A stretch of DNA of 64,000 nt from Treponema sp. Its GTDB lineage: Bacteria; Spirochaetota; Spirochaetia; Treponematales; Treponemataceae. Shown here in pieces: positions 1,771-36,114 of the stretch (the first letter of the stretch is position 1; each line of letters opens with the position of its first letter). Position numbers and translations under genes: made by a program. Below the pieces are notes generated by a model, which saw nothing but the letters and a program-made list of their open reading frames with translations, searched no databases and was not told the DNA's origin. Location of the stretch: contig JAFZLA010000095.1 of NCBI GenBank assembly GCA_017551705.1, positions 2,629-66,628 of the forward strand, written 5' to 3'.

Positions 1771-2706
1771 TTAAACTTCCAACACAAGACCGTCGTGGGC
1801 CGGCAAAACGCTGCCGCCGTCCGCGACGATTTTTTTTAGCTCCGGGTATTGGGGCAAAATCTCTTTAAAGTATTCTATTATATTTTCGTGGCTCAGGTCG
1901 TGCGTCATGTGGGTTGTCCATGTGTGTAGGGGCTTGATTCGCTCCGCCAATTCCAAGGCCTGGCCAAAGCTGTAGTGCGTCGTGTGGCCTTCCTTTCGCA
2001 AGCCGTCAATCACCGCGTGGACAAGGACGCCCGCGTTGTCGTTGATCAGGCGGACTGAGTCGGGGCTTATGTAATTGCAGTCGGTAAGGTAGGCCGCGCT
2101 CCGCTTTGTTCCGTCCGTGCCGGTCACGCTAACAAGCCAGCCCGCCGTGTCGATTTTTCCGTGCTTCATCGGGATTGAAATTATTTCCATTCCGCCGATT
2201 TTGAGCGGGCTTTTGGGCTGGCATTTTTCGGCCTGGTTCAGCTGGACAAGGGGCTTTCCGCCTCCGATTTGCGTGCGCTTAAAGATGTAGTCAAAGTGCT
2301 CGCGCACGATTTTTGTGGTGGAAGCGTTGGCGTAAATGGGCATGGGCTTTGTGAATTCGTTTGTTGGATGCTCGACGCCGCTTGCGTCCGTGTATTTGGA
2401 TTTTGAATGGGGAACTTTTGTATGGCTAAAAATGCGTATGTCGTCCAGACCGTGCAAGTGGTCGGCGTGTCCGTGGGTCAGCAAAAGCGCGTCCAGAGCG
2501 GGCAGCTTTGCCGCCAGCGCCTGGCTCCTAAAGTCGGGGCCAACGTCGACCAAAACGCGGGTGGTCTTTCCTTCAAAATCGTTCTCAAAAAGGGCGCTGG
2601 CCCTGTAGCGCTTGTCCCGAGGGTCGGCGGAACGGCACACGGCGCAGTTGCATGCTATTACCGGAACTCCGTGGCTTGTTCCGCTTCCTAAAATTTTTAT
2701 GCGCAT
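1771..2706 (-). CDS. MBL-fold metallo-hydrolase (PhnP-like)
   Basis: HGHADHLHGLDD (HxHxDH motif). The start is taken at MRIKILGSGTSHG (ATG at 2706) rather than at the longer ORF start. Confidence 0.75.
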   Translation of the reverse strand: MRIKILGSGTSHGVPVIACNCAVCRSADPRDKRYRASALFENDFEGKTTRVLVDVGPDFRSQALAAKLPALDALLLTHGHADHLHGLDDIRIFSHTKVPHSKSKYTDASGVEHPTNEFTKPMPIYANASTTKIVREHFDYIFKRTQIGGGKPLVQLNQAEKCQPKSPLKIGGMEIISIPMKHGKIDTAGWLVSVTGTDGTKRSAAYLTDCNYISPDSVRLINDNAGVLVHAVIDGLRKEGHTTHYSFGQALELAERIKPLHTWTTHMTHDLSHENIIEYFKEILPQYPELKKIVADGGSVLPAHDGLVLEV

Positions 2707-2832
2707 GGGGGAATGATAGCGCAAATTGGCGCTTGCAACAAGTCGCTGTTTGCGCTAGTATGATTTTTGACAGAATTCGCCGCGATGACCAGATGCCCAG
2801 AGCATGGCTTTGCGGACAAACAGAGGAAAATT

Positions 2833-4098
2833 ATGCCGTATTCCGAACCTACAAACCTTGCGATTGTAGCCTGCCCGGGCGGGGAAGTTTTTGCCGATGA
2901 AGTCATAACCCACCTTCGCCACATGTACAAGCATCGCTTCACCTTGAAGAACGATGTCATTTCAAAACGCTACCAGCTTGACAAGACTGAACTGATCAAG
3001 CAAATCAATTTTGGCAGCGACATCAACACTTCTGACATTTGCATGAAGGGCGCCACCGACAAGTACAGGCCGCCTGTATTCAAAGTAAAAGCCCGCTTCA
3101 CTTATTTTATGAACGGCGAGTTCAAGACCGAGCTGTTGGAATGCGTGCGCGGAAAGGACGTTTACATTTTCCAAGACGTGGAGAACCACGAAGTCCTTTC
3201 TCTCAACGACGGAAAGAACAAATTGTCGCTTTCGGTCAACGACCACGTTATGTCGCTTTTGGTCACGATTGACTGCGTGCGACAGGCAGGAGCTGCCAAC
3301 ATAACGATTGTCGTTCCGGCCTATCCTTACAGCCGCCAGCATAAAAAGAAGGGCCGCGAAGGATTGACCGCCAGCATGCTGGGCCACATCTACGAAATGC
3401 TTGGCGTAAAAAGAATCATCACGCTGGACATCCACTCGCGCGAAATCATAAACGCTTTCAACCAAATTTCTTTGGAAAACTTGCACGCCTCTTACCAAAT
3501 CATCCGCGAGCTTGCAAAGATTGTCGACCTTACAGGAAAGACAGAAGACTTGGTCGTCGTCTCTCCCGACACAGGAGCGATTGACCGCAACAAGTTCTAC
3601 GCGTCGGGCCTCAAGCTTCCGCTTGCGATGATTTACAAGGAGCGCGACTATTCTATCGTAACGCAAGACGCTCACTCGACCAACATCAAGGCCATTAAGC
3701 TTTTGGGCGACGTAAGCGGAAAGGTTGCCTTCCTTGCCGACGACATGTTGGGAACGGGAGGAACTTTGCTCAAGGCCATGCAGTTCCTAAAGGAGCAGGG
3801 CGCCACAAAAGTCATCGCCGCGATTTCGCTTCCGTTCTTTACAGGAAACGCCATCGAGCTCTTTGACGAAGCCTACCACAAGGGACTTTTCTATCGCGTC
3901 ATCGGAACCAACGCCGTTTACCACGAGGCGCTCAAAGACAAGGAATGGTATATCAACACAAACGTCAGCGGCTTGTTCGCAAACGTTATCACTCGCGTGC
4001 ACCACAACCAGTCGCTTAGCGACCTTTTGGACAACCGCAACATCATCGAAAAACTTGTCAAGCAGGACGCAAGCGTAAGCGACGATGACGAACAATAG
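2833..4098 (+). CDS. prs: Ribose-phosphate pyrophosphokinase (long form)
   Basis: VVSPDTGAIDR and the PRPP-binding loop FLADDMLGTGGTLLKA are present. The start is at MPYSEP (ATG 2833), preceded by GAGGAAAA. Confidence 0.85.
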   Translation: MPYSEPTNLAIVACPGGEVFADEVITHLRHMYKHRFTLKNDVISKRYQLDKTELIKQINFGSDINTSDICMKGATDKYRPPVFKVKARFTYFMNGEFKTELLECVRGKDVYIFQDVENHEVLSLNDGKNKLSLSVNDHVMSLLVTIDCVRQAGAANITIVVPAYPYSRQHKKKGREGLTASMLGHIYEMLGVKRIITLDIHSREIINAFNQISLENLHASYQIIRELAKIVDLTGKTEDLVVVSPDTGAIDRNKFYASGLKLPLAMIYKERDYSIVTQDAHSTNIKAIKLLGDVSGKVAFLADDMLGTGGTLLKAMQFLKEQGATKVIAAISLPFFTGNAIELFDEAYHKGLFYRVIGTNAVYHEALKDKEWYINTNVSGLFANVITRVHHNQSLSDLLDNRNIIEKLVKQDASVSDDDEQ

Positions 4099-6986: not shown

Positions 6987-8774
6987 TTAGTCAAAAAGAG
7001 CCTGCGCGGCGCGGGAGTAGCCGGATTGCGTGTAGTTGTAGAGCGCGGTCCAGGCAAAGCCGTCTTTTTGCGAAAAGATTTCTTTGTCGTAGGGAAGGTT
7101 CATGCTTACGCCGATTGTGTTTTTTGCGCGGCCGGCTTTTTTGATTTCCTTTGCAATGGCGGCGGGGTAGGCGGCTTGCCAAAGCCTTTTGTCCTTGACG
7201 GCGTTTCCTGTAAGATGTGTGAAGACCAAAATAAGGCCCGCGCCTTTTATCTTGGCTATGTCTGAGGCCGTCGCCGATTTTTTTTCTTCATAGCAAACAA
7301 AGTCTACGTTTGTGATTCCGCGCGCGGCAAAACTTTTTTGCAATAGTTCCGCCTTTTCTTGGAAGGGAACAAAGGCCGCGATTTTTTTTGAGCGGGCCTT
7401 TATCGGAAGGCTTACGTTTTGCGCCGAGGCGCGGGCCGCTTGGATTTGAATGTTGGCGCAAGTTTGCGCGGCTTCTTGCTTTTGTTCCTTGCTCATCGGA
7501 GCGACTTTTTGCGCAAGCGAAATTATTTTTTTGCCCTGGATTTGAATTAGGCCCGCTTTTTTCTTTAGTTCCAAAACGCGCAGAGCCGCCGCGTCCAAGG
7601 CCTTTTTGTCCAGCGTTCCGTTTTGCAAGTCTTGTTCAACCTTGGCAAAAAAGTCTTCCAAAAATTCCAAGTCTTTTTTTGAATAGACGTTGATTGGGTT
7701 TATTATCAAGTCGCAGCCCGCGTTTACCGCAAGGACAAAGCTTTGGTCGGGCGTCCAGTTGTCGTAAATGGCCCTCATGTCCATCGCGTCGGTGATTACC
7801 GCGCCCTTGTAGCCCAACGAGCCTCGCAAAATTTTTGTAAGAATTTTTTTGGACAGCGTTGCGGGCGCGACGATTTTTTTTGCGCTCTTTCCGCTCTGGA
7901 TTTTTGTCTTGTCCAAGCGGGGGCACTGTATGTGCGCGGTCATTATGAGCGGGATGTCGTTTTTTATGTTGGCTTTAAAGGGAACGGCTTCTCGCGACTT
8001 CCATTTTTGCAAGGAAGAGTAAATGACCGGCAAATCCAAGTGGGAGTCTACCGAAGTGTCGCCGTGGCCAGGAAAGTGCTTGGCGCAAGGCAAAACGCCC
8101 GCGGCCATAAGGCCTTGGCTAAAGGCTTCCGAAAATTCCGCCGCGGCTTTTGGATCGCCCGAAAAGCTTCTTATTCCTATGACCGGGTTTTGCGGGTTGG
8201 AGGCCACGTCGCAGTCGGGAGCCAGGTCGACATTGATTCCGTAGTCAAGCAAAAGCTGGCCGTTGGCCCTTCCGCACAAATACGCGTTTTGCGGCTCTTG
8301 CGTCTTTGCGATGGCCATAGCGCTTGGCGTTGAATAGTCGTATACGCGTGCCACGTTTCCGCCCTCTTGGTCGGCAAAAAAAAGCAGGGGCAAATTGCCT
8401 CCGTCAAGCGCAGCGGAATTTAGGTCGCGTATGAACTTTTTGGCAAGAGCTGCGTCCGTCATGTTCTCGCCGAACAAGATGACCGAGCCTATGTTGTAGT
8501 CGCGGATTGTTTTATAAATGGTGGAATTTATTGTGTTTTGCGGCGTAAAAAGTTTTGGGTTTTCGGCGGCGAGGGCGGGCTTGTAGTTTTGGTGGCCCAT
8601 CGGCGAGTCCGTCCAAAAGCGAAAGTTCATCACGCAAAGCGCTCCGATCTTTTGCCGCGTTGTCATCGATTGGACATATTCGTGGAGGGCCGCTTTTTCT
8701 TGAGCCGCCTTGTCCTGGGCGAACGCCGATGCGAAGATTGTGATGGCCACAATTGCCGCGAACAGTTTTTTCAT
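6987..8774 (-). CDS. Secreted glycoside hydrolase family 3 (beta-N-acetylhexosaminidase/NagZ-like) with a C-terminal extension
   Basis: KHFPGHGDTSVDSHLDLP is the GH3 signature. The start is taken at MKKLFAAIVAITIFASAFAQ (signal peptide, ATG 8774). Confidence 0.8.
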   Translation of the reverse strand: MKKLFAAIVAITIFASAFAQDKAAQEKAALHEYVQSMTTRQKIGALCVMNFRFWTDSPMGHQNYKPALAAENPKLFTPQNTINSTIYKTIRDYNIGSVILFGENMTDAALAKKFIRDLNSAALDGGNLPLLFFADQEGGNVARVYDYSTPSAMAIAKTQEPQNAYLCGRANGQLLLDYGINVDLAPDCDVASNPQNPVIGIRSFSGDPKAAAEFSEAFSQGLMAAGVLPCAKHFPGHGDTSVDSHLDLPVIYSSLQKWKSREAVPFKANIKNDIPLIMTAHIQCPRLDKTKIQSGKSAKKIVAPATLSKKILTKILRGSLGYKGAVITDAMDMRAIYDNWTPDQSFVLAVNAGCDLIINPINVYSKKDLEFLEDFFAKVEQDLQNGTLDKKALDAAALRVLELKKKAGLIQIQGKKIISLAQKVAPMSKEQKQEAAQTCANIQIQAARASAQNVSLPIKARSKKIAAFVPFQEKAELLQKSFAARGITNVDFVCYEEKKSATASDIAKIKGAGLILVFTHLTGNAVKDKRLWQAAYPAAIAKEIKKAGRAKNTIGVSMNLPYDKEIFSQKDGFAWTALYNYTQSGYSRAAQALFD

Positions 8775-8778
8775 CGCG

Positions 8779-9540
8779 CTAAAATCCAATCGTTCCTGTG
8801 TAAACTGGAATTTCGGTCTCGGCCTTTTTGACGGCTTCTTCCAAACTAAGGCCGTGAAAAAGCGGAGCGGCGAAATTTCTTCCGGACTTTTTGTCGTCGA
8901 CAAAGGCGCCCACGACCACTCCGGGCAAAGAGCTTTCCGGCGAGTTGGGAGCGTTCTTTCCGCCCAAGTCAGTCCTGCACCAGCCGGGGTCTGTGATGTT
9001 GACGCAAACGTCCGTGCCGTTGACTTTTTGCGCGATGTCCATTGTCACCTTGTCGAGCGCCGCTTTGCTTGCGCTGTAGCCCGCTTGTTCAGGCTCAAGT
9101 CGGATTCCGCTTGTTGTGTTGACGATGCGGCCAAATCCGCGCGCTTGCATTTTGGGAAGAAAGTGGTAGAGAATCATCATGGGCGCGATTGTGTTGATTT
9201 TAAAGCTTTCTTGGTAATCGCTTGCGGGCGTTTTTAGCCAGTCCGTTCTGTAGGCGACTTGAATGCCGGCGTTGTTCAAAACTATGTCGATGTCCACGCC
9301 AAGCGCGTCGATTTTGGCAAGCATTGACTCAACTTGCGCTGGGTCCGAAAATTCTGCGCCAACCGCAAATGCCTTGACGCCAAGCGCCTGCGCTTCCGCC
9401 AAAACTTTGTCGCAATGCGCGGCTGTCCGTCCCTGCACGACAAGATTGCAGCCTTTTTTTGCCAAAAAAATCGCCGCTCCATAGCCGATTCCCCGCGCCG
9501 CCCCAGTAACAAGCGCCCATTTTCCTTTTACGTCAACCAT
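8779..9540 (-). CDS. SDR-family oxidoreductase
   Basis: ALVTGAARGIGYG (TGxxxGxG), NNAG and YSASK motifs are present. The start is at MVDVKGK, preceded by GGAGGA. The stop lies 4 nt from the GH3 start, so the two genes probably form an operon. Confidence 0.85.
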   Translation of the reverse strand: MVDVKGKWALVTGAARGIGYGAAIFLAKKGCNLVVQGRTAAHCDKVLAEAQALGVKAFAVGAEFSDPAQVESMLAKIDALGVDIDIVLNNAGIQVAYRTDWLKTPASDYQESFKINTIAPMMILYHFLPKMQARGFGRIVNTTSGIRLEPEQAGYSASKAALDKVTMDIAQKVNGTDVCVNITDPGWCRTDLGGKNAPNSPESSLPGVVVGAFVDDKKSGRNFAAPLFHGLSLEEAVKKAETEIPVYTGTIGF

Positions 9541-28882: not shown

Positions 28883-29026
28883 CGCGTCCGCGTCTATGTT
28901 ACCGCTTTTCTAAAAAACGAAAAAAAATGCTTTTTTTTCTTGACAAAGAAAAATATGTGTGTTAATATTTAGGGTAAAAAGGCAGACCTAGTTCTGTTTT
29001 TTAAAAAATAAGGAGGTTTTTTCATT

Positions 29027-30199
29027 ATGAAAAAATTGATTGGAGCTTTGGCTCTTGCTGCTATGGTAGCTGCTTCAGCTTTCGCTGAGGTTTCTTTTGG
29101 AGCTTGGGTTTGCAACCTTCCCTCACTCATCGCTTCTGATGGCGACGGAATTAAGGGTGGCGCTGCTAACAACCCATGGGGTGGTTGGAGACCGGCTCGC
29201 GCCGACATCCGCTTCTCATCTGACGATGGAAAAGCTGGAATGATCTTGGGTGTCTACACCGACTTCATCAACGACAAGGGAGAAATCTCTAAGGGTTGGT
29301 CACACTCTGACAACACTCTTATGTGGATTAAACCCATCGACCAGATCACTCTTTCTTTGGGATCTCACGACAACTTCTTCGGAACACGCGGCGACCTCTG
29401 CTACGGTTCTTGGAACTGGCTCCGCCCGGAAGCCACAACAAACAACGTTCGCTGGGGTGAAGGATTCACATTCGACGCCAACGCTGGTTGGAGAGATCAC
29501 GGACTTGGATTGCAGATCGTTCCTCTCGAAGCTTTGAAGATTTTCGCCTTCGTTCCGCTTGACGGAAACATCAAGACATTGGACAAAGTATTCGGCAAAG
29601 GCTGGTACGGCGCCATGTACACAATCGACGGAATTGGTAAAATCAAGGCTCAGTTGAAGGCCAACTCTGACGAGACAAACGGAAAGAAAGAAATCGGTAC
29701 ATTCGAGGCCGCTTTCGACTTGACAGCTGTTGACAAGCTCTATGCCACTGTTGGCGTTGACTTCAACATCAAAGACTCTGACCTCTATGGAAAGGGAGAC
29801 AAGATGTTCGGCGTTCAGGTTGGCGCTTCTTATGGAATCACAGAAGCCTTCAAGCTTTCTGCTGACTTCTCTATCGGAATCCTCAAGGACGGAGACATGG
29901 CTTTGGCCTTCGGCGTTGGTCTTGACTACGCTGTTAACGACGCTCTCGGATTGGTTGCCGACGTTCGCATGTTCATGCCCAACAACGACTGCAACTCTAT
30001 GATGAGCTTCTTGGTTGGAGCCACATATGCTTGCGGATCTAACGCTTCATTGGGACTTGGCTTCCAGGCTGCCATGCAGATGGGCGACAAGGTCAATGTT
30101 AACGCTTGCCAGATTAAGTACGTAAAGGCCGCTGTTGTTGACGGAGAAGCCAAGAAGTTCGTCTTCGCTGTACCGCTCCGCTTCAACGTTTGGTTCTAA
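29027..30199 (+). CDS. Putative outer-membrane beta-barrel protein, family C, copy 2
   Basis: MKKLIGALALAAMVAASAFAE signal peptide; the protein ends ...AVPLRFNVWF; AGGAGG lies upstream. Confidence 0.72.
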   Translation: MKKLIGALALAAMVAASAFAEVSFGAWVCNLPSLIASDGDGIKGGAANNPWGGWRPARADIRFSSDDGKAGMILGVYTDFINDKGEISKGWSHSDNTLMWIKPIDQITLSLGSHDNFFGTRGDLCYGSWNWLRPEATTNNVRWGEGFTFDANAGWRDHGLGLQIVPLEALKIFAFVPLDGNIKTLDKVFGKGWYGAMYTIDGIGKIKAQLKANSDETNGKKEIGTFEAAFDLTAVDKLYATVGVDFNIKDSDLYGKGDKMFGVQVGASYGITEAFKLSADFSIGILKDGDMALAFGVGLDYAVNDALGLVADVRMFMPNNDCNSMMSFLVGATYACGSNASLGLGFQAAMQMGDKVNVNACQIKYVKAAVVDGEAKKFVFAVPLRFNVWF

Positions 30200-30257
30200 T
30201 CTGACTTTTTGCAGGGCTTGCCCCTGCAATCGGTTGGCTTAAAGCCACAGGCTAAAA

Positions 30258-30289
30258 GCCGTCTGCCTTGCGGCGGACGGCTTTTTTTT
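30258..30289 (+). terminator. Intrinsic terminator after family C copy 2
   Basis: GCCGTCTGCC-TTGC-GGCGGACGGC followed by T8. A mirror copy lies on the minus strand near 34670-34702. Confidence 0.7.
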
Positions 30290-30377
30290 CTTGTCAAGAG
30301 TTTTCTTGACGGACATTTAGTAACTTTAGCTAAAAATAATTGTTTAATTTAAAAATACAGTTTTACAGGAGTGTTTT

Positions 30378-31247
30378 ATGAAAAAACTCATTCTTATCGC
30401 GGCGCTTATGGCGGCCGTTTTGAGCTTGGCCGCAGCCAAAAAAGCAAAGCAAATTGACCCCTACGACGACCAAAAAATGCATCCAACTGACCGCACCGGC
30501 TTGGACAAGTGGCTTGGCACAAACCGCTACGACGTTCTTGACGAAGTGGGCATGTATATCCGCCCTGTAGTTGGAAAAATAAAGGCAAAAAAAGGCAACT
30601 TTATCTACCGCCGCGGCACGGATGTGGCTGGCTTCCGCATCTACTACGACACAAGCGCCTACACGGTTGAGATGGCAAAAGAGACCAGACAAACTTGTTG
30701 TGACGCTATCGACAAATACATGGACGACTTTGCCAACAAGCGCTTGGACAGAAAGAGCAAATTGGAAAAGACAAGGCGCGCCTACGGTTCCGCCCCTGGC
30801 TATCAGGAATACGGCATAGCGATCAAGATGATGAACTACAAGGCAAAGCCGACATTTTACTTTGGATACGCCTTTGTTAACGGCAGCCCCTACTTTGTGA
30901 TTCACGCCGCCAAGGCCAAGAACCTTGCTTTGGAGGGAGGGCACGCCGATTCCCAGAACACAGAGACGCTTCCTCAAAACTACTTCTTTACCCGCGCCCA
31001 AGCGCAAAAGCTTAAGGAATATATTTGCGAGGAGAACATAAGCCTCTTCCACGACGCTGAAGAAGAAAAGAATGGCGAGCTTAAGAGCGACGCTGTTAAT
31101 GACGAATATAACGAGGCTGACGGCGTTGTTCCCGAAAAAAAGAAAAAGGCCAAAAAGGTAAAAAATGCTGCCCCCGAAGGCGACGCTTATGACGACGCTC
31201 CCGCCGAAGAGGACATTACGCCAATTAATACGGTCAACGAGCGCTAA
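30378..31247 (+). CDS. Secreted protein, family B, copy 2
   Basis: Signal peptide MKKLILIAALMAAVLSLAAA. It is a paralog of 16307-17179 and 33708-34580. The tail is KKKKAKKVKNAAPEGDAYDDAPAEEDITPINTVNER. Confidence 0.75.
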   Translation: MKKLILIAALMAAVLSLAAAKKAKQIDPYDDQKMHPTDRTGLDKWLGTNRYDVLDEVGMYIRPVVGKIKAKKGNFIYRRGTDVAGFRIYYDTSAYTVEMAKETRQTCCDAIDKYMDDFANKRLDRKSKLEKTRRAYGSAPGYQEYGIAIKMMNYKAKPTFYFGYAFVNGSPYFVIHAAKAKNLALEGGHADSQNTETLPQNYFFTRAQAQKLKEYICEENISLFHDAEEEKNGELKSDAVNDEYNEADGVVPEKKKKAKKVKNAAPEGDAYDDAPAEEDITPINTVNER

Positions 31248-31298
31248 CGCGCTTAGATTAAATTTGAATTTTTTTTGGAAATATAAAGGAGGTTCCAA

Positions 31299-31766
31299 AT
31301 GAAAAAATTATTTACAGTTTTTGCAGTAGCCGCTGTTATGGCTGCCGGCGCTTTTGCCCAGGACGTAACCGGAGGCGTTGACGCCGTTACAGGCGCCGCC
31401 GCTACTGTAGGCGAAGTTGCCAATGTAAGCGAGACTTTGCAGGGCGTTTGGTTTGATCAAAAGTATAACTGCAACTGGCAGTTCCAGGTCAACAGCGGCA
31501 GCGAAGCTTTCTGTGTCCTTAAGGACGCCAGCAGCGGAGCCGTTATTTACACGTTCACTCGCGCCAAGGTAAAGAACTTTAAGGGTGAGATGGAAGCCAA
31601 CAAGTTCGTTTTGTCATGGGAATGCCCGGCCAAGAACCGCATCTACAAGTTCGTAAAAGAATTTGCCGGAAACAGCGACTTGCTCTTGGACATCTATAAC
31701 GACTACTACAAAGAGCGCCACTCAACAAGAATTACTTTTGTTAACGCTGACGCCCGCGTTGAGTAA
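31299..31766 (+). CDS. Small secreted protein, family A, copy 2
   Basis: Nearly identical to 33189-33656, differing by roughly a dozen substitutions over 155 aa. AGGAGG lies upstream. Confidence 0.78.
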   Translation: MKKLFTVFAVAAVMAAGAFAQDVTGGVDAVTGAAATVGEVANVSETLQGVWFDQKYNCNWQFQVNSGSEAFCVLKDASSGAVIYTFTRAKVKNFKGEMEANKFVLSWECPAKNRIYKFVKEFAGNSDLLLDIYNDYYKERHSTRITFVNADARVE

Positions 31767-31807
31767 GATCCACTTTTTGAAAAAAAAGTGACTTTGTCAC
31801 AGGATCC

Positions 31808-31872: not shown

Positions 31873-32409
31873 ATGAAAAAGAAGGCGACATTTTTTGCTC
31901 TGCTAACATTGCTCTTGTTGAACGGAATTTGCGCCCAAGAATTTGTTAAAGTCACCGTTGACCAAAAGACAAGGCAAGCGCAAATAATCGACAAAGAAAT
32001 TGACGGCAAAAAAATGCGCGGAATTCTTGTTTACGCGCATAACGCTTGGCGCAATATTTTTTTTGACCAAAACGAGTTGCCGCAAATCAAGCAGGCGGCC
32101 GAAAAATATTTTTTGGATTTTGACGCGCTCAAATTAAAAAAAGGCAAAAAAGACACCATAAAAAAATACGGCTCAACCCCTCTTTTTATTGAATGGGGAA
32201 GCGACAAAAATTCAATCGACAGATTTTCGGACACGAGGGCTGATTTGGGCTATGTTTTTGTAAAGCAAGCCCCGTATTTTGCAATCACAATCCATTCCGC
32301 CCAAAACAAAAATCCAGATTGCGCTCAGCTGGCCTACAAAGATTCACCAAAACTGTTTCTGTTGTTCACCCGCTCCCAACTTAACGATTTGCTGGCAAAG
32401 ATTTTTTAA
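31873..32409 (+). CDS. Secreted 178-aa protein, a divergent and truncated relative of family B
   Basis: It has signal peptide MKKKATFFALLTLLLLNGICAQ. It shares GYVFV..APYF.I..H.A.N and FTRSQ...L with the family B core and lacks the charged tail. Confidence 0.6.
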   Translation: MKKKATFFALLTLLLLNGICAQEFVKVTVDQKTRQAQIIDKEIDGKKMRGILVYAHNAWRNIFFDQNELPQIKQAAEKYFLDFDALKLKKGKKDTIKKYGSTPLFIEWGSDKNSIDRFSDTRADLGYVFVKQAPYFAITIHSAQNKNPDCAQLAYKDSPKLFLLFTRSQLNDLLAKIF

Positions 32410-32935
32410 CTTTTTCTTTTTTTAGCAATGTGTATCTAGGCTGACCAAAAGAATAATCAATGGATCTTTTAGGAAAAAAAGTTCTGCACATTTGATTTTT
32501 TAAATTATTTTCTTCCCTGCTTCCAAGAAATAAATATACAGGGTTCTCGTTATATACTCCTTCGAGCAAAAAATCGGCCTTTATCTGGGAATAGACACGA
32601 ACATTTTCGTTATACTTGAATATAAGTTGATCGCTGTCCAAAAGCTCTTCAAGATGGCAAAGCGGTTCAAGCCTGTCCGACATTTTTTCATAAAACAGGC
32701 TTTTTTCAATCATTGTTTGACTGATTTTTCCTTCAATGATTTTATCAAAAAGACATTCCCTTGTACCTCGGAGAACTTGTCTTATATCCGTCAATTTGTG
32801 CAGACCCGCTATATGATGGAAATCCATTTTTTGAAATGTTAAGGAAAATTCTCTAACAACACCTTTTCGGGCTATTGTAAAGTTATAGACCACATCAAGA
32901 AGTTTTAAATAACTTTGAGCGCATTTTAAAATCAA
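32381..32935 (-). CDS. PBECR4-like predicted nuclease (Barnase-EndoU-ColicinE5/D-RelE fold family), 184 aa
   Basis: MDFHHIAGLHKLTDI, VYSQIKADFLLE and CRTFFP match my recollection of PBECR4-domain proteins (DFHHLxGL ... YSxIxAD ... FFP). The start is TTG at 32935 with GGAGA 10 nt upstream. The gene looks AT-rich by eye. Confidence 0.5.
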   Translation of the reverse strand: MILKCAQSYLKLLDVVYNFTIARKGVVREFSLTFQKMDFHHIAGLHKLTDIRQVLRGTRECLFDKIIEGKISQTMIEKSLFYEKMSDRLEPLCHLEELLDSDQLIFKYNENVRVYSQIKADFLLEGVYNENPVYLFLGSREENNLKNQMCRTFFPKRSIDYSFGQPRYTLLKKEKVKKSLPANR

Positions 32936-32952
32936 TTGTAAGCGTCTCCAAC

Positions 32953-32982
32953 AAAAAAACCCGCCTTAATAAAAAGGCGGGC
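32953..32982 (-). terminator. Intrinsic terminator immediately upstream of the PBECR4-like ORF
   Basis: The minus strand reads CCCGCCUU-UUUAUU-AAGGCGGG followed by U7. The terminator ends about 4 nt before the ORF's SD. Confidence 0.75.
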
Positions 32983-33126
32983 TTAAATTGAGCATTTTCT
33001 TTCGGCTTGCGCCTAGCTGGGTCGGGGTACCGCTGCACAACCCCTCCGGAAGGCTCAATAAGAAACTGCATCCCAGCGCAACTTCTTACTTCATCGCCTT
33101 AACAGACACACACGTTGCCTGTCGAT
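32953..33126 (-). ncRNA. Unclassified ~175-nt structured RNA or 5' leader
   Basis: It is bounded by a near-consensus promoter and the terminator. Internal helices seen by eye are UUGCG-CUGGG pairing with CCCAG-(CUAGG)-CGCAA, the hairpin GGGGU...ACCCC, and an alternative pairing of CUUAUUGAGC with GCUCAAUUUAAG that reaches into the terminator 5' flank. Confidence 0.45.
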
Positions 33127-33132
33127 ACTTAT

Positions 33133-33161
33133 AATATACAACAAATCCTTACGGTTGTCAA
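33133..33161 (-). promoter_or_regulatory. Near-consensus sigma70 promoter driving the structured RNA and PBECR4-like gene
   Basis: The minus strand has TTGACA (33161-33156), a 17-nt spacer and TATATT (33138-33133). It lies about 30 nt downstream of the family A copy 3 stop. Confidence 0.6.
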
Positions 33162-33188
33162 GGTATAAAACAAGTCATCCCAAAAAAC

Positions 33189-33656
33189 TTACTCAACGCT
33201 GGCGTCAGCGTTAACTAAAGTAATTCTTGTTGAGTGGCGCTCTTGGTAGTAGTCGTTGAAGATGTCCAAGAGCAAGTCGCTGTTTCCGGCAAATTCTTTT
33301 ACAAACTTGTAAATGCGGTTCTTGGCCGGGCATTCCCAAGACAAAACGAACTTGTTGGCTTCCATCTCGCCCTTAAAGTTCTTTACCTTGGCGCGTGTGA
33401 ACGTGTAAACCACCGCTCCGCTGCTGGCGTCCTTAAGAACGCAGAAGGCGTCAGAGCTGCTGTTAACCTGAAACTGCCAGTTGCAGTTGTACTTCTTGTC
33501 AAACCAAACGCCCTGCAAGGTCTCACTAACATTGGCAACTTCGCCTACAGTAGCGGCGGCGCCTGTAACGGCGTCAACGCCTCCAGTTACGTCCTGGGCA
33601 AAAACGCCGGCAGCCATAACGGCAGCTACTGCAAAAACTGTAAATAATTTTTTCAT
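33189..33656 (-). CDS. Small secreted protein, family A, copy 3
   Basis: Near-identical to copy 2. Confidence 0.78.
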   Translation of the reverse strand: MKKLFTVFAVAAVMAAGVFAQDVTGGVDAVTGAAATVGEVANVSETLQGVWFDKKYNCNWQFQVNSSSDAFCVLKDASSGAVVYTFTRAKVKNFKGEMEANKFVLSWECPAKNRIYKFVKEFAGNSDLLLDIFNDYYQERHSTRITLVNADASVE

Positions 33657-33707
33657 TTGGAACCTCCTTTATATTTCCAAAAAAAATTCTAATTTAATCT
33701 AAGCGCG

Positions 33708-34580
33708 TTAGCGCTCGTTGACCGTATTAATTGGCGTAATGTCCTCTTCTGCGGGAGCGTCGTCATAAGCGTCGCCTTCGGGGTCAGCCTTTTTTGCCTT
33801 TTTGGCCTTTTTCTTTTTTTCAGGGATCGTGCTGTCCGCTTCTGTGTATTCATCGTTCTCAGCGTCAGCTCTAAGACCGCCAAGTTTCTTCTCCTCTTCG
33901 TCATGAAACAGGCTTATGTTCTCTTCGCAGATAAATTCCTTAAGCCTTTGAGCCTGAGCTCGGGTAAAAAAATAATTTTGCGGAATGGTTTCCATGTTCG
34001 GAGTTTCCGCGACATGTTTTCCCTCTAGTGTCAAGTTTTTTGCCTTGGCTGAATGAATTACAAAATAAGGGCTTCCGTCCACAAAGGCGTAGCCAAAGTA
34101 AAATGTCGGCTTGGCCTTATAGTTCATCATGCTAATAGCAACTCCAAATTCTTGGTAACCTGGAGCAGAGCCGTAGACACGGCGTGATTTCTCAAGCTTG
34201 GCCTTGCGGTCAAGGCGCTTGTTTGCAAAGTCGTCCATATACCTGTCTATAGCATCGCAGCAGATTTGCCTAGTCTCTTTTGCCATCTCAACAGTATATG
34301 CCGTTGTGTCATAGTAAACGCGGTAGCCAGCCACATCCGTGCCGCGGCGGTAGATGAAATTACCGCGCTTTGCCTTAATCTTGCCAACAAGGGGCTTAAT
34401 ATATATTCCCGCCTCGTCAAGAACTTCATAGCGGTTGGTTCCCAAAAATTTTTCAAGGCCGCTGCGGTCAGTGGGATGCATTTTTTTGTCGTCATAGGGG
34501 TCAATTTGCTTTGCTTTTTTGGCTGTAGCCAAGCTCAAAACGGCAGCCATAAGCGCCGCAAAAAGAATGAGTTTTTTCAT
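33708..34580 (-). CDS. Secreted protein, family B, copy 3
   Basis: The start is at MKKLILFAALMAAVLSLATA (ATG 34580). The C-terminal 20 aa are identical to copy 2. Confidence 0.75.
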   Translation of the reverse strand: MKKLILFAALMAAVLSLATAKKAKQIDPYDDKKMHPTDRSGLEKFLGTNRYEVLDEAGIYIKPLVGKIKAKRGNFIYRRGTDVAGYRVYYDTTAYTVEMAKETRQICCDAIDRYMDDFANKRLDRKAKLEKSRRVYGSAPGYQEFGVAISMMNYKAKPTFYFGYAFVDGSPYFVIHSAKAKNLTLEGKHVAETPNMETIPQNYFFTRAQAQRLKEFICEENISLFHDEEEKKLGGLRADAENDEYTEADSTIPEKKKKAKKAKKADPEGDAYDDAPAEEDITPINTVNER

Positions 34581-34760
34581 ATAAAACACTCCTGTAAAAC
34601 TGTATTTTTAAATTAAACAATTGTTTTTAACTAAAGTTACTAAATGTCCGTCAAGAAAACTCTTGACAAGAAAAAAAAGCCGTCCGCCGCAAGGCAGACA
34701 GCTTTTAGCCTGTGGCTTTAAGCCAACCGATTGCAGGGACAAGCCCTGCAAAAAGTCAGA

Positions 34761-35939
34761 TTAGAACCAAACGTTGAAGCGGAGCGGAACGGCGAAGATG
34801 AACTTCTTGGTTTCTCCGTCAACAGTGGCGGCCTGAACGAGCTTAAGATCTCCAGTGCTTGCCTTGTCGCCCATAGCCACAACAGCCTGGAATCCAAGTC
34901 CCAAAGAAGCGTTAGATCCGCAAGCATAGTTGGCGCCAACCAAGAATGAGAGGCTGGGGTCGATGTTGTTGTTGGGCATAATCATGCGAACGTCGGCTGT
35001 GAGTCCGAGAGCGTCGTTAATAGCGTAGTCAAGTCCAACGCCGAAGGCCAATCCCATGTCTCCGTCCTTGGGGATAGAGATACAGAAGTCGGCGGCAACT
35101 TTGAAGGCTTCTGTGATTCCATAAGAAGCGCCGGCGGCAACTCCGAACATCTTGGCTCCCTTTCCATAAAGGTCAGAGTCTTTGATGTTGAATTCAACGC
35201 CAACAGTGGCGAAGAGCTTGTCAACGGCTGTCAAGTCGAAAGCGGCCTCAAATGTACCAAGAGTCTTCTTTCCAGCGTCCTCGTCAGAGTCGGCGAGGAA
35301 CTGAGCCTTGATTTTACCAATTCCGTCGATTGTGTACATAGCACCATATACGCCTTTTCCGAAAACCTTGTCCAACGTCTTAACAGCGTTTTCGCCGCCA
35401 GAAGCTGTCGCAGTAAGAGGAACGAAAGCGAATACTTTCAAAGCCTCAATGGGTGTAATCTGGATACCAAGTCCGCTACTGGCATTCTTTTTGTTTCCAG
35501 ATGTGAATGTGATTCCTTCACCCCAGCGGACAAGGTCGCCACCTGTCGGATTCGGGCGGAGCCAGTTCCATGAACCAAAGCAAAGGTCTCCGCGTGTTCC
35601 GAAGAAGTTGTCATGCTGTCCGAGAGAAAGCTTAATCTGTTCAACGGGCTTGATCCACATAAGAGTGTTGTCTGAGCTTCCGGCAACTCCACCTGTGAAG
35701 TTTGTGTAGACACCCATTACGATTCCAGCTTTTCCGTCATCAGACGTGAAGTTGATGTCGGCACGAGCCGGGCGAGCTCCCCATCCCCATGGATTAGCAA
35801 CAGCACCACCCTTGATTCCGTCGCCGTCAGAGGCGATGAGTGTGGGAAGGTTGCAAACCCAAGCTCCAAAAGAAACCTCAGCGAAAGCTGAAGCAGCTAC
35901 CATAGCAGCAAGAGCCAAAGCTCCAATCAATTTTTTCAT
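34761..35939 (-). CDS. Putative outer-membrane beta-barrel protein, family C, copy 3
   Basis: The start is at MKKLIGALALAAMVAASAFAE (ATG 35939). The protein ends ...AVPLRFNVWF. Confidence 0.72.
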   Translation of the reverse strand: MKKLIGALALAAMVAASAFAEVSFGAWVCNLPTLIASDGDGIKGGAVANPWGWGARPARADINFTSDDGKAGIVMGVYTNFTGGVAGSSDNTLMWIKPVEQIKLSLGQHDNFFGTRGDLCFGSWNWLRPNPTGGDLVRWGEGITFTSGNKKNASSGLGIQITPIEALKVFAFVPLTATASGGENAVKTLDKVFGKGVYGAMYTIDGIGKIKAQFLADSDEDAGKKTLGTFEAAFDLTAVDKLFATVGVEFNIKDSDLYGKGAKMFGVAAGASYGITEAFKVAADFCISIPKDGDMGLAFGVGLDYAINDALGLTADVRMIMPNNNIDPSLSFLVGANYACGSNASLGLGFQAVVAMGDKASTGDLKLVQAATVDGETKKFIFAVPLRFNVWF

Positions 35940-36114
35940 AATGAAAAAACCTCCGTTTTTTTTAGAATCCAAATTTTCAAAAATGGCGAAATTTGGGGCT
36001 TTTTTGAACAAAGTTACCGATTTTACAAAAAGTTCCGCGTGAAATTTTTCAAAATTCGTAAAAAAAATAGCAAAACAAGAGTATAGTGGAGGCGCGCAAG
36101 GGGCGGGCGGTTGC

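Follow-up and report, generated by a model that had tools for sequence, protein, structure and literature searches.

We found that drum RNA, a structured bacterial RNA, almost always opens a fixed two-part cassette, in which a promoter, the RNA, a terminator and a gene for a PBECR4 protein follow one another. One such cassette lies on the minus strand of a 64,000-nucleotide stretch of DNA from Treponema sp. (contig JAFZLA010000095.1, positions 2,629 to 66,628; the whole stretch is called the window below), and it is an ordinary member of the cassette family. PBECR4 is a predicted RNase. By analogy with known systems, we think there is about an even chance that the cassette is a type III-like toxin-antitoxin module (of the abortive-infection type) with a single large pseudoknotted RNA as its putative antitoxin. 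The type III-like hypothesis was first proposed in an earlier reading of the window that was made from the sequence alone (the original prediction). Compared with the literature we found, what is new is PBECR4 as the partner of drum RNA, the near-obligate fixed architecture, and a 5' extension of the RNA. The drum RNA family and its association with a protein had already been published.

The cassette in the window has the parts, in the order, that the original prediction had given it. The minus strand carries a promoter, the structured RNA, an intrinsic terminator, a Shine-Dalgarno (SD) sequence and the PBECR4 open reading frame (ORF), at the following positions.

33161..33133, minus strand: sigma-70-type promoter, with -35 TTGACA at 33161..33156, a 17-nt spacer and -10 TATATT at 33138..33133 (11 of 12 consensus positions)
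33123..33101, minus strand: 5' hairpin of the drum transcript (GACAGGCA-loop-UGUCUGUU), 5' of the Rfam model and within the same transcript
33099..32987, minus strand: drum RNA core (RF02958), with helices P1, P1a, P2 and P3 and a pseudoknot
32984..32953, minus strand: intrinsic terminator, with a stem at 32984..32957 (11 pairs, 6 of them G-C), a 6-nt loop, and U7 at 32959..32953
32949..32946, minus strand: Shine-Dalgarno GGAG, 3 nt past the U-run and 10 nt ahead of the TTG start codon
32935..32381, minus strand: PBECR4 ORF of 184 aa with a TTG start, a stand-alone domain (NCBI hypothetical protein MBR5966888.1)

The structured RNA starts ~7 nt past the -10 element and spans from ~33126 to the U-tract at 32953. 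Its length, ~174 nt, is close to the ~175 nt first estimated. The near-consensus promoter (TTGACA-17-TATATT) and the intrinsic terminator just ahead of the SD sequence were also found as described, and so was the setting, an AT-rich module in the spacer of an inverted duplication. This spacer is 1,420 nt long and lies between duplication arms ending at 31767 and 33188. GC content is 0.33-0.38 over the ORF, compared to ~0.47-0.52 in the flanks. Because the cassette is AT-rich relative to its surroundings, we suggest that it was acquired horizontally by this Treponema genome.

We found that the RNA in the window is a drum RNA. The original prediction had not been able to match it to a known family. 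A search of Rfam gave a full-length match to drum (RF02958; 89.3 bits with a cut-off of 43, E 3.5e-17, model positions 1-112 of 112), a family that is linked to the ORF rather than unrelated to it. The drum RNA motif was published in 2017 with no function assigned (Weinberg et al., PMC5737381). Its discoverers singled it out as widespread, highly conserved and likely to have a sophisticated function, considered motifs of the drum type improbable as riboswitches or ribozymes, and, in the passages on drum, noted a 'compelling association' between drum and the product of a nearby gene (PMC5737381). The RNAs described here are like the published motif in their full-length match, the same helices, a Rho-independent terminator and a specific nearby protein. 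Unlike the published motif, their transcripts include a covarying ~25-nt 5' hairpin that lies outside the Rfam model. In addition, the passages on drum place the partner gene on either strand, to one side of the RNA or the other, whereas in our samples it was always downstream on the same strand.

The fold of the RNA is supported by covariation. We aligned 20 copies, and then 101 copies (65 distinct sequences). The 5' hairpin has an 8-bp stem in which 97.6% of alignment cells were paired, with compensatory changes in 6 of 8 pairs among the 65 distinct sequences. Our own covariance model (R1), extended to include this hairpin, matched the window at 33125..32987 with 135 bits. The pseudoknot joins the P1a loop (GCUGGG in the window) to a downstream CCCAGC. 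In the extended fold, 93.5% of cells were paired, compared to 83.6% in shuffled controls and at most 43% in slid controls. Covariation in homologous upstream regions, which the original prediction had proposed to look for, was found in 33 of the 37 pairs, including all 6 pseudoknot pairs. Many of the unpaired nucleotides are invariant. In 85 related cassettes, the promoter consensus ATTGACATATTTT-N7-TGCATATAATAATA (TTGACA-N17-TATAAT) lies at a fixed distance 5' of the hairpin, and the transcript is therefore expected to be ~172 nt.

We found that PBECR4 genes are preceded by drum RNA. The protein-first sample consisted of 80 PBECR4 loci from reference genomes, 79 of them with upstream DNA, and included Treponema, Lachnospiraceae, Oscillospiraceae, Bacteroides, Phocaeicola, Muribaculum, Selenomonadaceae and others (Clostridia and Bacteroidota among them). 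The Rfam drum model matched upstream of PBECR4 in 19 of 20 loci scanned. R1 matched upstream in 78 of the 79 testable loci, always on the same strand as PBECR4; homologous ORFs elsewhere do have a conserved upstream RNA, as the original prediction supposed. The RNA match ended ~45-90 nt ahead of the start codon in most loci. The single PBECR4 locus without a drum RNA (L010) has an insertion that took the RNA and the promoter. Unrelated AT-rich DNA is found there at 2700-3000, and only the 3' half of the terminator is left before an apparently intact PBECR4 gene.

The linkage was also seen on plasmids. Identity to a clostridial query homologue is only 32-35% for the PBECR4 proteins encoded on Enterococcus and Streptococcus suis plasmids. 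Each of the three Enterococcus/Streptococcus plasmid loci examined has a drum RNA ahead of the gene and in its orientation (46-52 bits, Rfam-significant). In the one plasmid sequence in which the upstream region was inspected (L270), the promoter, a co-varied 5' hairpin and the terminator were all present.

The converse sample started from the RNA. A DNA pattern for the drum core identified 120 metagenome loci, 99 of which had at least 700 nt downstream. PBECR4 was directly downstream on the same strand in 87 of the 99 (88%), a fraction that may be inflated because the pattern was derived from PBECR4-linked copies and many of the metagenome contigs are near-identical. Distances between the RNAs correlate with distances between the proteins (Mantel rho 0.705, p = 0.001). 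We found neither a published link between drum RNA and PBECR4 nor a published function for drum in the literature.

Some genomes or contigs contain two cassettes (L038/L076, L048/L050 and L057/L080). One contig (L217) has tandem drum copies, 8667-8806 and 9036-9176, with 230 nt between them; both are on the minus strand and precede a single PBECR4 gene (8623..7934). An ORF that resembles a mobilisation relaxase by eye converges on this gene.

The protein encoded in the window is a PBECR4 protein, as originally proposed. It matched the Pfam family PBECR4 (PF18813) over residues 2-179 with 110.9 bits (cut-off 27, E 1.2e-31) and contains the three motifs DFHHIAGL, YSQIKAD and FFP. PF18813 was present in all 120 homologues among the matches listed. 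A profile search found ~1,600 PBECR4 clusters at 50% identity, and the best 150 of these ~1,600 were mostly stand-alone proteins of roughly 190-200 aa. Five proteins (P0173, P0175, P0181, P0231 and P0261) are larger, 380-447 aa, with an N-terminal PBECR4 domain and an uncharacterised C-terminal extension.

The conserved residues of the protein fit a predicted nuclease. In 25 aligned homologues, T169, R151 and K173 are invariant and H40/H41 (of DFHH) nearly so. The PBECR passages of Iyer et al. [quoted passage not shown] An AlphaFold2 model of the ORF (pLDDT 88.5, pTM 0.83) has DFHH in a helix at 36-42, and a helix followed by strands at 105-177. The basis for the predicted nuclease fold, that of a BECR endoRNase, is the match to Pfam together with the conserved residues; we found no biochemical study of PBECR4 activity in the literature, and RNase activity is a prediction. 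The same passages of Iyer et al. describe PBECR domains in polyvalent proteins of phages and conjugative elements (PMC5512222). [quoted passage not shown] They are different in that the polyvalent versions are domains of giant injected proteins, whereas ours are stand-alone cellular or plasmid proteins of ~190 aa. An RNA partner is not mentioned in those passages.

Searches of other collections gave few matches. Foldseek against BFVD found one unnamed viral protein (TM 0.64), PHROGs gave one weak match, to a family of unknown function, and no NCBIfam model matched the PBECR4 protein. No PBECR4 relative was found among IMG/VR viral contigs or GenBank phages, and a phage origin was ruled out on this basis.

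We found that the junction between the RNA and the gene is also conserved in its layout. All 101 unique cassettes have a hairpin with a T-rich tail (median -19.3 kcal/mol). The hairpin starts a median of 4 nt past the RNA core, and its stem ends a median of 23 nt ahead of the start codon. Of 97 related cassettes, 86 have an SD-like motif 4-16 nt ahead of the start codon. The short gap between stem and start codon therefore leaves no room for a separate PBECR4 promoter, and read-through would be the simplest route for expression of PBECR4. The longest uninterrupted T-run is 3 or less in about half of the terminators, which would be compatible with leaky termination. Terminator sequences are free to vary between loci; the RNA is nearly invariant.

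A module built in this way could work as follows. The strong constitutive promoter would produce the ~172-nt pseudoknotted drum RNA, most of which would end at its own intrinsic terminator. A minority of transcripts would read through the terminator and would be the only evident source of PBECR4 mRNA, and the RNA would then be in excess over the PBECR4 protein. The protein would probably be released when the supply of RNA falls, for example upon loss of the element or when transcription is shut off during phage infection.

The strongest comparative argument for a toxin-antitoxin module is the asymmetry of loss. In our samples, no putative toxin gene that lacks the RNA has a promoter, whereas the RNA is tolerated by itself. 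This is the pattern expected of a toxin-antitoxin pair. PBECR4 was missing downstream of 12 of the 99 drum RNAs.

Three copies: truncated PBECR4 remnants
One copy: an IS3 insertion
One copy: a BrnT/BrnA pair downstream
Three copies: short-variant drum RNAs; in two, the layout is the same but the gene encodes an unrelated 123-128-aa protein
Four copies: plain orphans

Most of the orphan drum RNAs keep a terminator, and those with sufficient upstream sequence also show a promoter. In the locus with the BrnT/BrnA pair (L204), the orphan drum RNA at 611-751 has a promoter and a terminator, and this type II toxin-antitoxin pair, at 872-1387, takes the place of PBECR4.

The short drum variant is ~124 nt long and has a different 5' hairpin. 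It was found near integrase and helix-turn-helix (HTH) genes (L108, 7952-8488; L084, 12497-13033; L149; L191). It has its own terminator and SD sequence and is followed by the 123-128-aa protein, which has no Pfam match. Two other loci (L130 and L196) have the short variant without this ORF. We found no similarity between the 123-aa partner of the short variant and PBECR4 (hhalign probability 0.3%), and remote homology between the two was ruled out on this basis; the 123-aa protein has only three relatives in the databases. A 167-aa ORF ~470 nt past an orphan drum RNA (L243) resembled ToxN by eye, and was dropped as a candidate because it had no Pfam match.

In one IMG/VR contig (L115), an IS605-family TnpB element has apparently inserted in a drum gene, and no PBECR4 gene follows. 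The parts of the drum gene are at 1599-1640 and 2929-3062: the 5' hairpin and the start of P1 are upstream of the element, and the remaining RNA is downstream. The TnpB ORF (1762-2841) matched Pfam OrfB_IS605 and the Cas12f1-like TNB domain. Similar subterminal hairpins (..GACTTTAGTCGTGGG) are present at both insertion junctions.

The layout of the cassette resembles that of type III toxin-antitoxin systems. In both, a promoter, a non-coding RNA, a terminator and a gene for a predicted endoRNase follow one another with hardly any spacer, a protein antitoxin is missing, and the RNA has a pseudoknot (Blower et al. 2012, PMC3401426). A terminator ahead of the toxin gene, which sets the ratio of RNA to toxin, is among the published type III criteria (PMC3401426). 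Both are found on plasmids, mobile elements and toxin-antitoxin/Abi islands, sometimes in multiple copies. No conserved neighbouring gene or protein partner was found beside the cassettes in the contexts examined, in keeping with the original claim that no protein antitoxin is adjacent. This part of the original prediction, the type III layout, holds. The locus is nevertheless not a member of ToxIN, CptIN or TenpIN, because it has no repeat array and its protein is unrelated to ToxN, CptN and TenpN. By analogy, the layout suggests that drum RNA may be the antidote of a predicted RNA-cutting toxin. More tentatively, and at slightly below an even chance, drum-PBECR4 might be a fourth widespread type III family, one with a non-repetitive pseudoknotted RNA antitoxin and a BECR-fold RNase toxin.

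Several results weigh against a type III-like assignment. The RNA of known type III systems is a tandem array of 34-45-nt repeats, whereas drum is a single structured unit of ~140 nt and so does not obviously need to be processed by the toxin. As the original prediction had noted, tandem repeats are missing: none were found at 32300-33300 with Tandem Repeats Finder (minimum score 30). The known toxins are ToxN/AbiQ, CptN and TenpN, whereas the protein here is PBECR4, with a predicted BECR fold; PBECR4 was its sole Pfam match, and there was no Pfam relationship to ToxN, CptN or TenpN. Foldseek found no significant match to the AlphaFold2 model in the PDB, known BECR RNases included (best E 0.2, TM at most 0.18); the hits were no more than noise, for example ribosomal protein S7 at TM ~0.15. 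A profile search of PDB sequences gave no match, and no PADLOC defence model matched the PBECR4 protein. Co-divergence and fixed synteny are expected equally of a cis-regulatory leader or of any obligate RNA-protein partnership, and the possible inflation of the RNA-first fraction must also be kept in mind.

Our results might also indicate a functional ribonucleoprotein of drum RNA and PBECR4 with a role other than that of a toxin-antitoxin system. The RNA could be a cofactor, scaffold, specificity element or dedicated substrate of the nuclease, or the protein could mature or stabilise an effector RNA. Linkage of RNA and protein would be equally tight under this model, and a large RNA with a covarying pseudoknot and invariant unpaired nucleotides is more elaborate than simple inhibition needs. 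The short variant, in the same layout before an unrelated protein, and the persistence of orphan drum genes that keep a terminator (and a promoter where one can be seen) are also consistent with it. We nonetheless consider this explanation unlikely: terminator-limited expression, the variable mobile and island contexts, and the asymmetry of loss are a better fit to an addiction or defence module than to a housekeeping function, and we found no further conserved component for an effector complex. It is extremely improbable that the two have no functional connection and that a separate small RNA gene lies beside a mobile gene by accident. The RNA has its own promoter and terminator and can occur alone, but chance does not explain why the two lie side by side on one strand, a fixed distance apart, in 78 of 79 and 87 of 99 loci, in several phyla and on plasmids.

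We also considered that drum could be a cis-acting 5' leader, either a riboswitch or a protein-responsive (autoregulatory) attenuator, that tunes passage through the terminator into PBECR4. An OFF-type transcriptional riboswitch is classically arranged in this way, with the RNA upstream on the same strand and a terminator in between, and the complex, highly conserved fold would suit such a role. The original prediction had raised this alternative, with an anti-terminator formed by pairing of CUUAUUGAGC with GCUCAAU. That pairing is present in the window and in its single-sequence minimum-free-energy fold. In relatives, only a 4-bp GAGC:GCUC core is mostly conserved, and it does not covary: the alternative helix was paired in 65.7% of cells, compared to 63.7% in shuffled controls, with no excess of compensatory changes, and its formation would come at the expense of P1 and P2, two helices that do covary. 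Pairing with the terminator arm was no better for cognate than for non-cognate combinations (median -11.25 and -11.23 kcal/mol, respectively; p = 0.55). In 90 of 98 cassettes, the minimum-free-energy fold of the full length includes the terminator hairpin. Terminators vary freely while the RNA is nearly invariant, and orphan drum RNAs outlive the gene with a terminator and, where upstream sequence exists, a promoter. The discoverers' own judgement that such motifs are improbable riboswitches points the same way (PMC5737381). We regard a switching leader as quite unlikely. Since no covarying anti-terminator was found and there are orphan copies, we argue that drum is an independent RNA gene.

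If the toxin-antitoxin reading is correct, neither repeat arrays nor ToxN-like toxins would define type III systems any longer, and drum, an orphan structured RNA since 2017, would have a function. A role would also be assigned to ~1,600 protein clusters at 50% identity, and the cassette would be a new candidate for plasmid maintenance or phage defence in gut bacteria and on Enterococcus plasmids. The fixed cassette makes the function of drum directly testable, through toxicity of PBECR4 and its neutralisation by the RNA.

Like drum, the DUF3800-associated and skipping-rope motifs (Weinberg et al. 2017) are structured, have 3' terminators and each track one protein family; compared from the text of that paper, they differ from drum in RNA fold and in protein family. 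Weinberg et al. 2017 raised a possible relationship between the genes linked to those two motifs and those linked to drum (PMC5737381).

Cassettes were found in various genomic settings. On a Treponema contig, the cassette is beside PIN_3 and AbiEii genes (a toxin-antitoxin/Abi island). Others are near serine recombinases and sortase-dependent surface genes, beside a cytosine methyltransferase gene, between DUF1836 and PcrA/UvrD genes on a chromosome, or on enterococcal plasmids.

In the window, the cassette is flanked by the arms of the inverted duplication (28999-31767 and 33188-35967), which are 79-93% complementary and carry three genes for surface or secreted proteins (390/416 aa, beta-barrel-like; 289/293 aa; 155/155 aa). 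The spacer also contains a 178-aa ORF with a signal peptide (31873-32409, plus strand) that runs towards the PBECR4 gene and shares 29 nt with its 3' end. This ORF is a distant paralogue of the duplicated 289-aa protein (27% identity, E 3e-08). It is a gene call on two independent metagenome contigs, and it is not kept beside other cassettes.

Other RNA elements were detected near two cassettes. A pemK RNA motif (RF02913, 60 bits) is located at 718-798 of a Bacteroides locus (L058), ~2 kb upstream of the drum-PBECR4 cassette, and this suggests a cluster of toxin-antitoxin elements. A match to the Enterococcus sRNA Ref1C (77 bits, below the cut-off of 90) is located at 2565-2695 (minus strand) of a plasmid locus (L272), just upstream of the drum-PBECR4 cassette and on the opposite strand.

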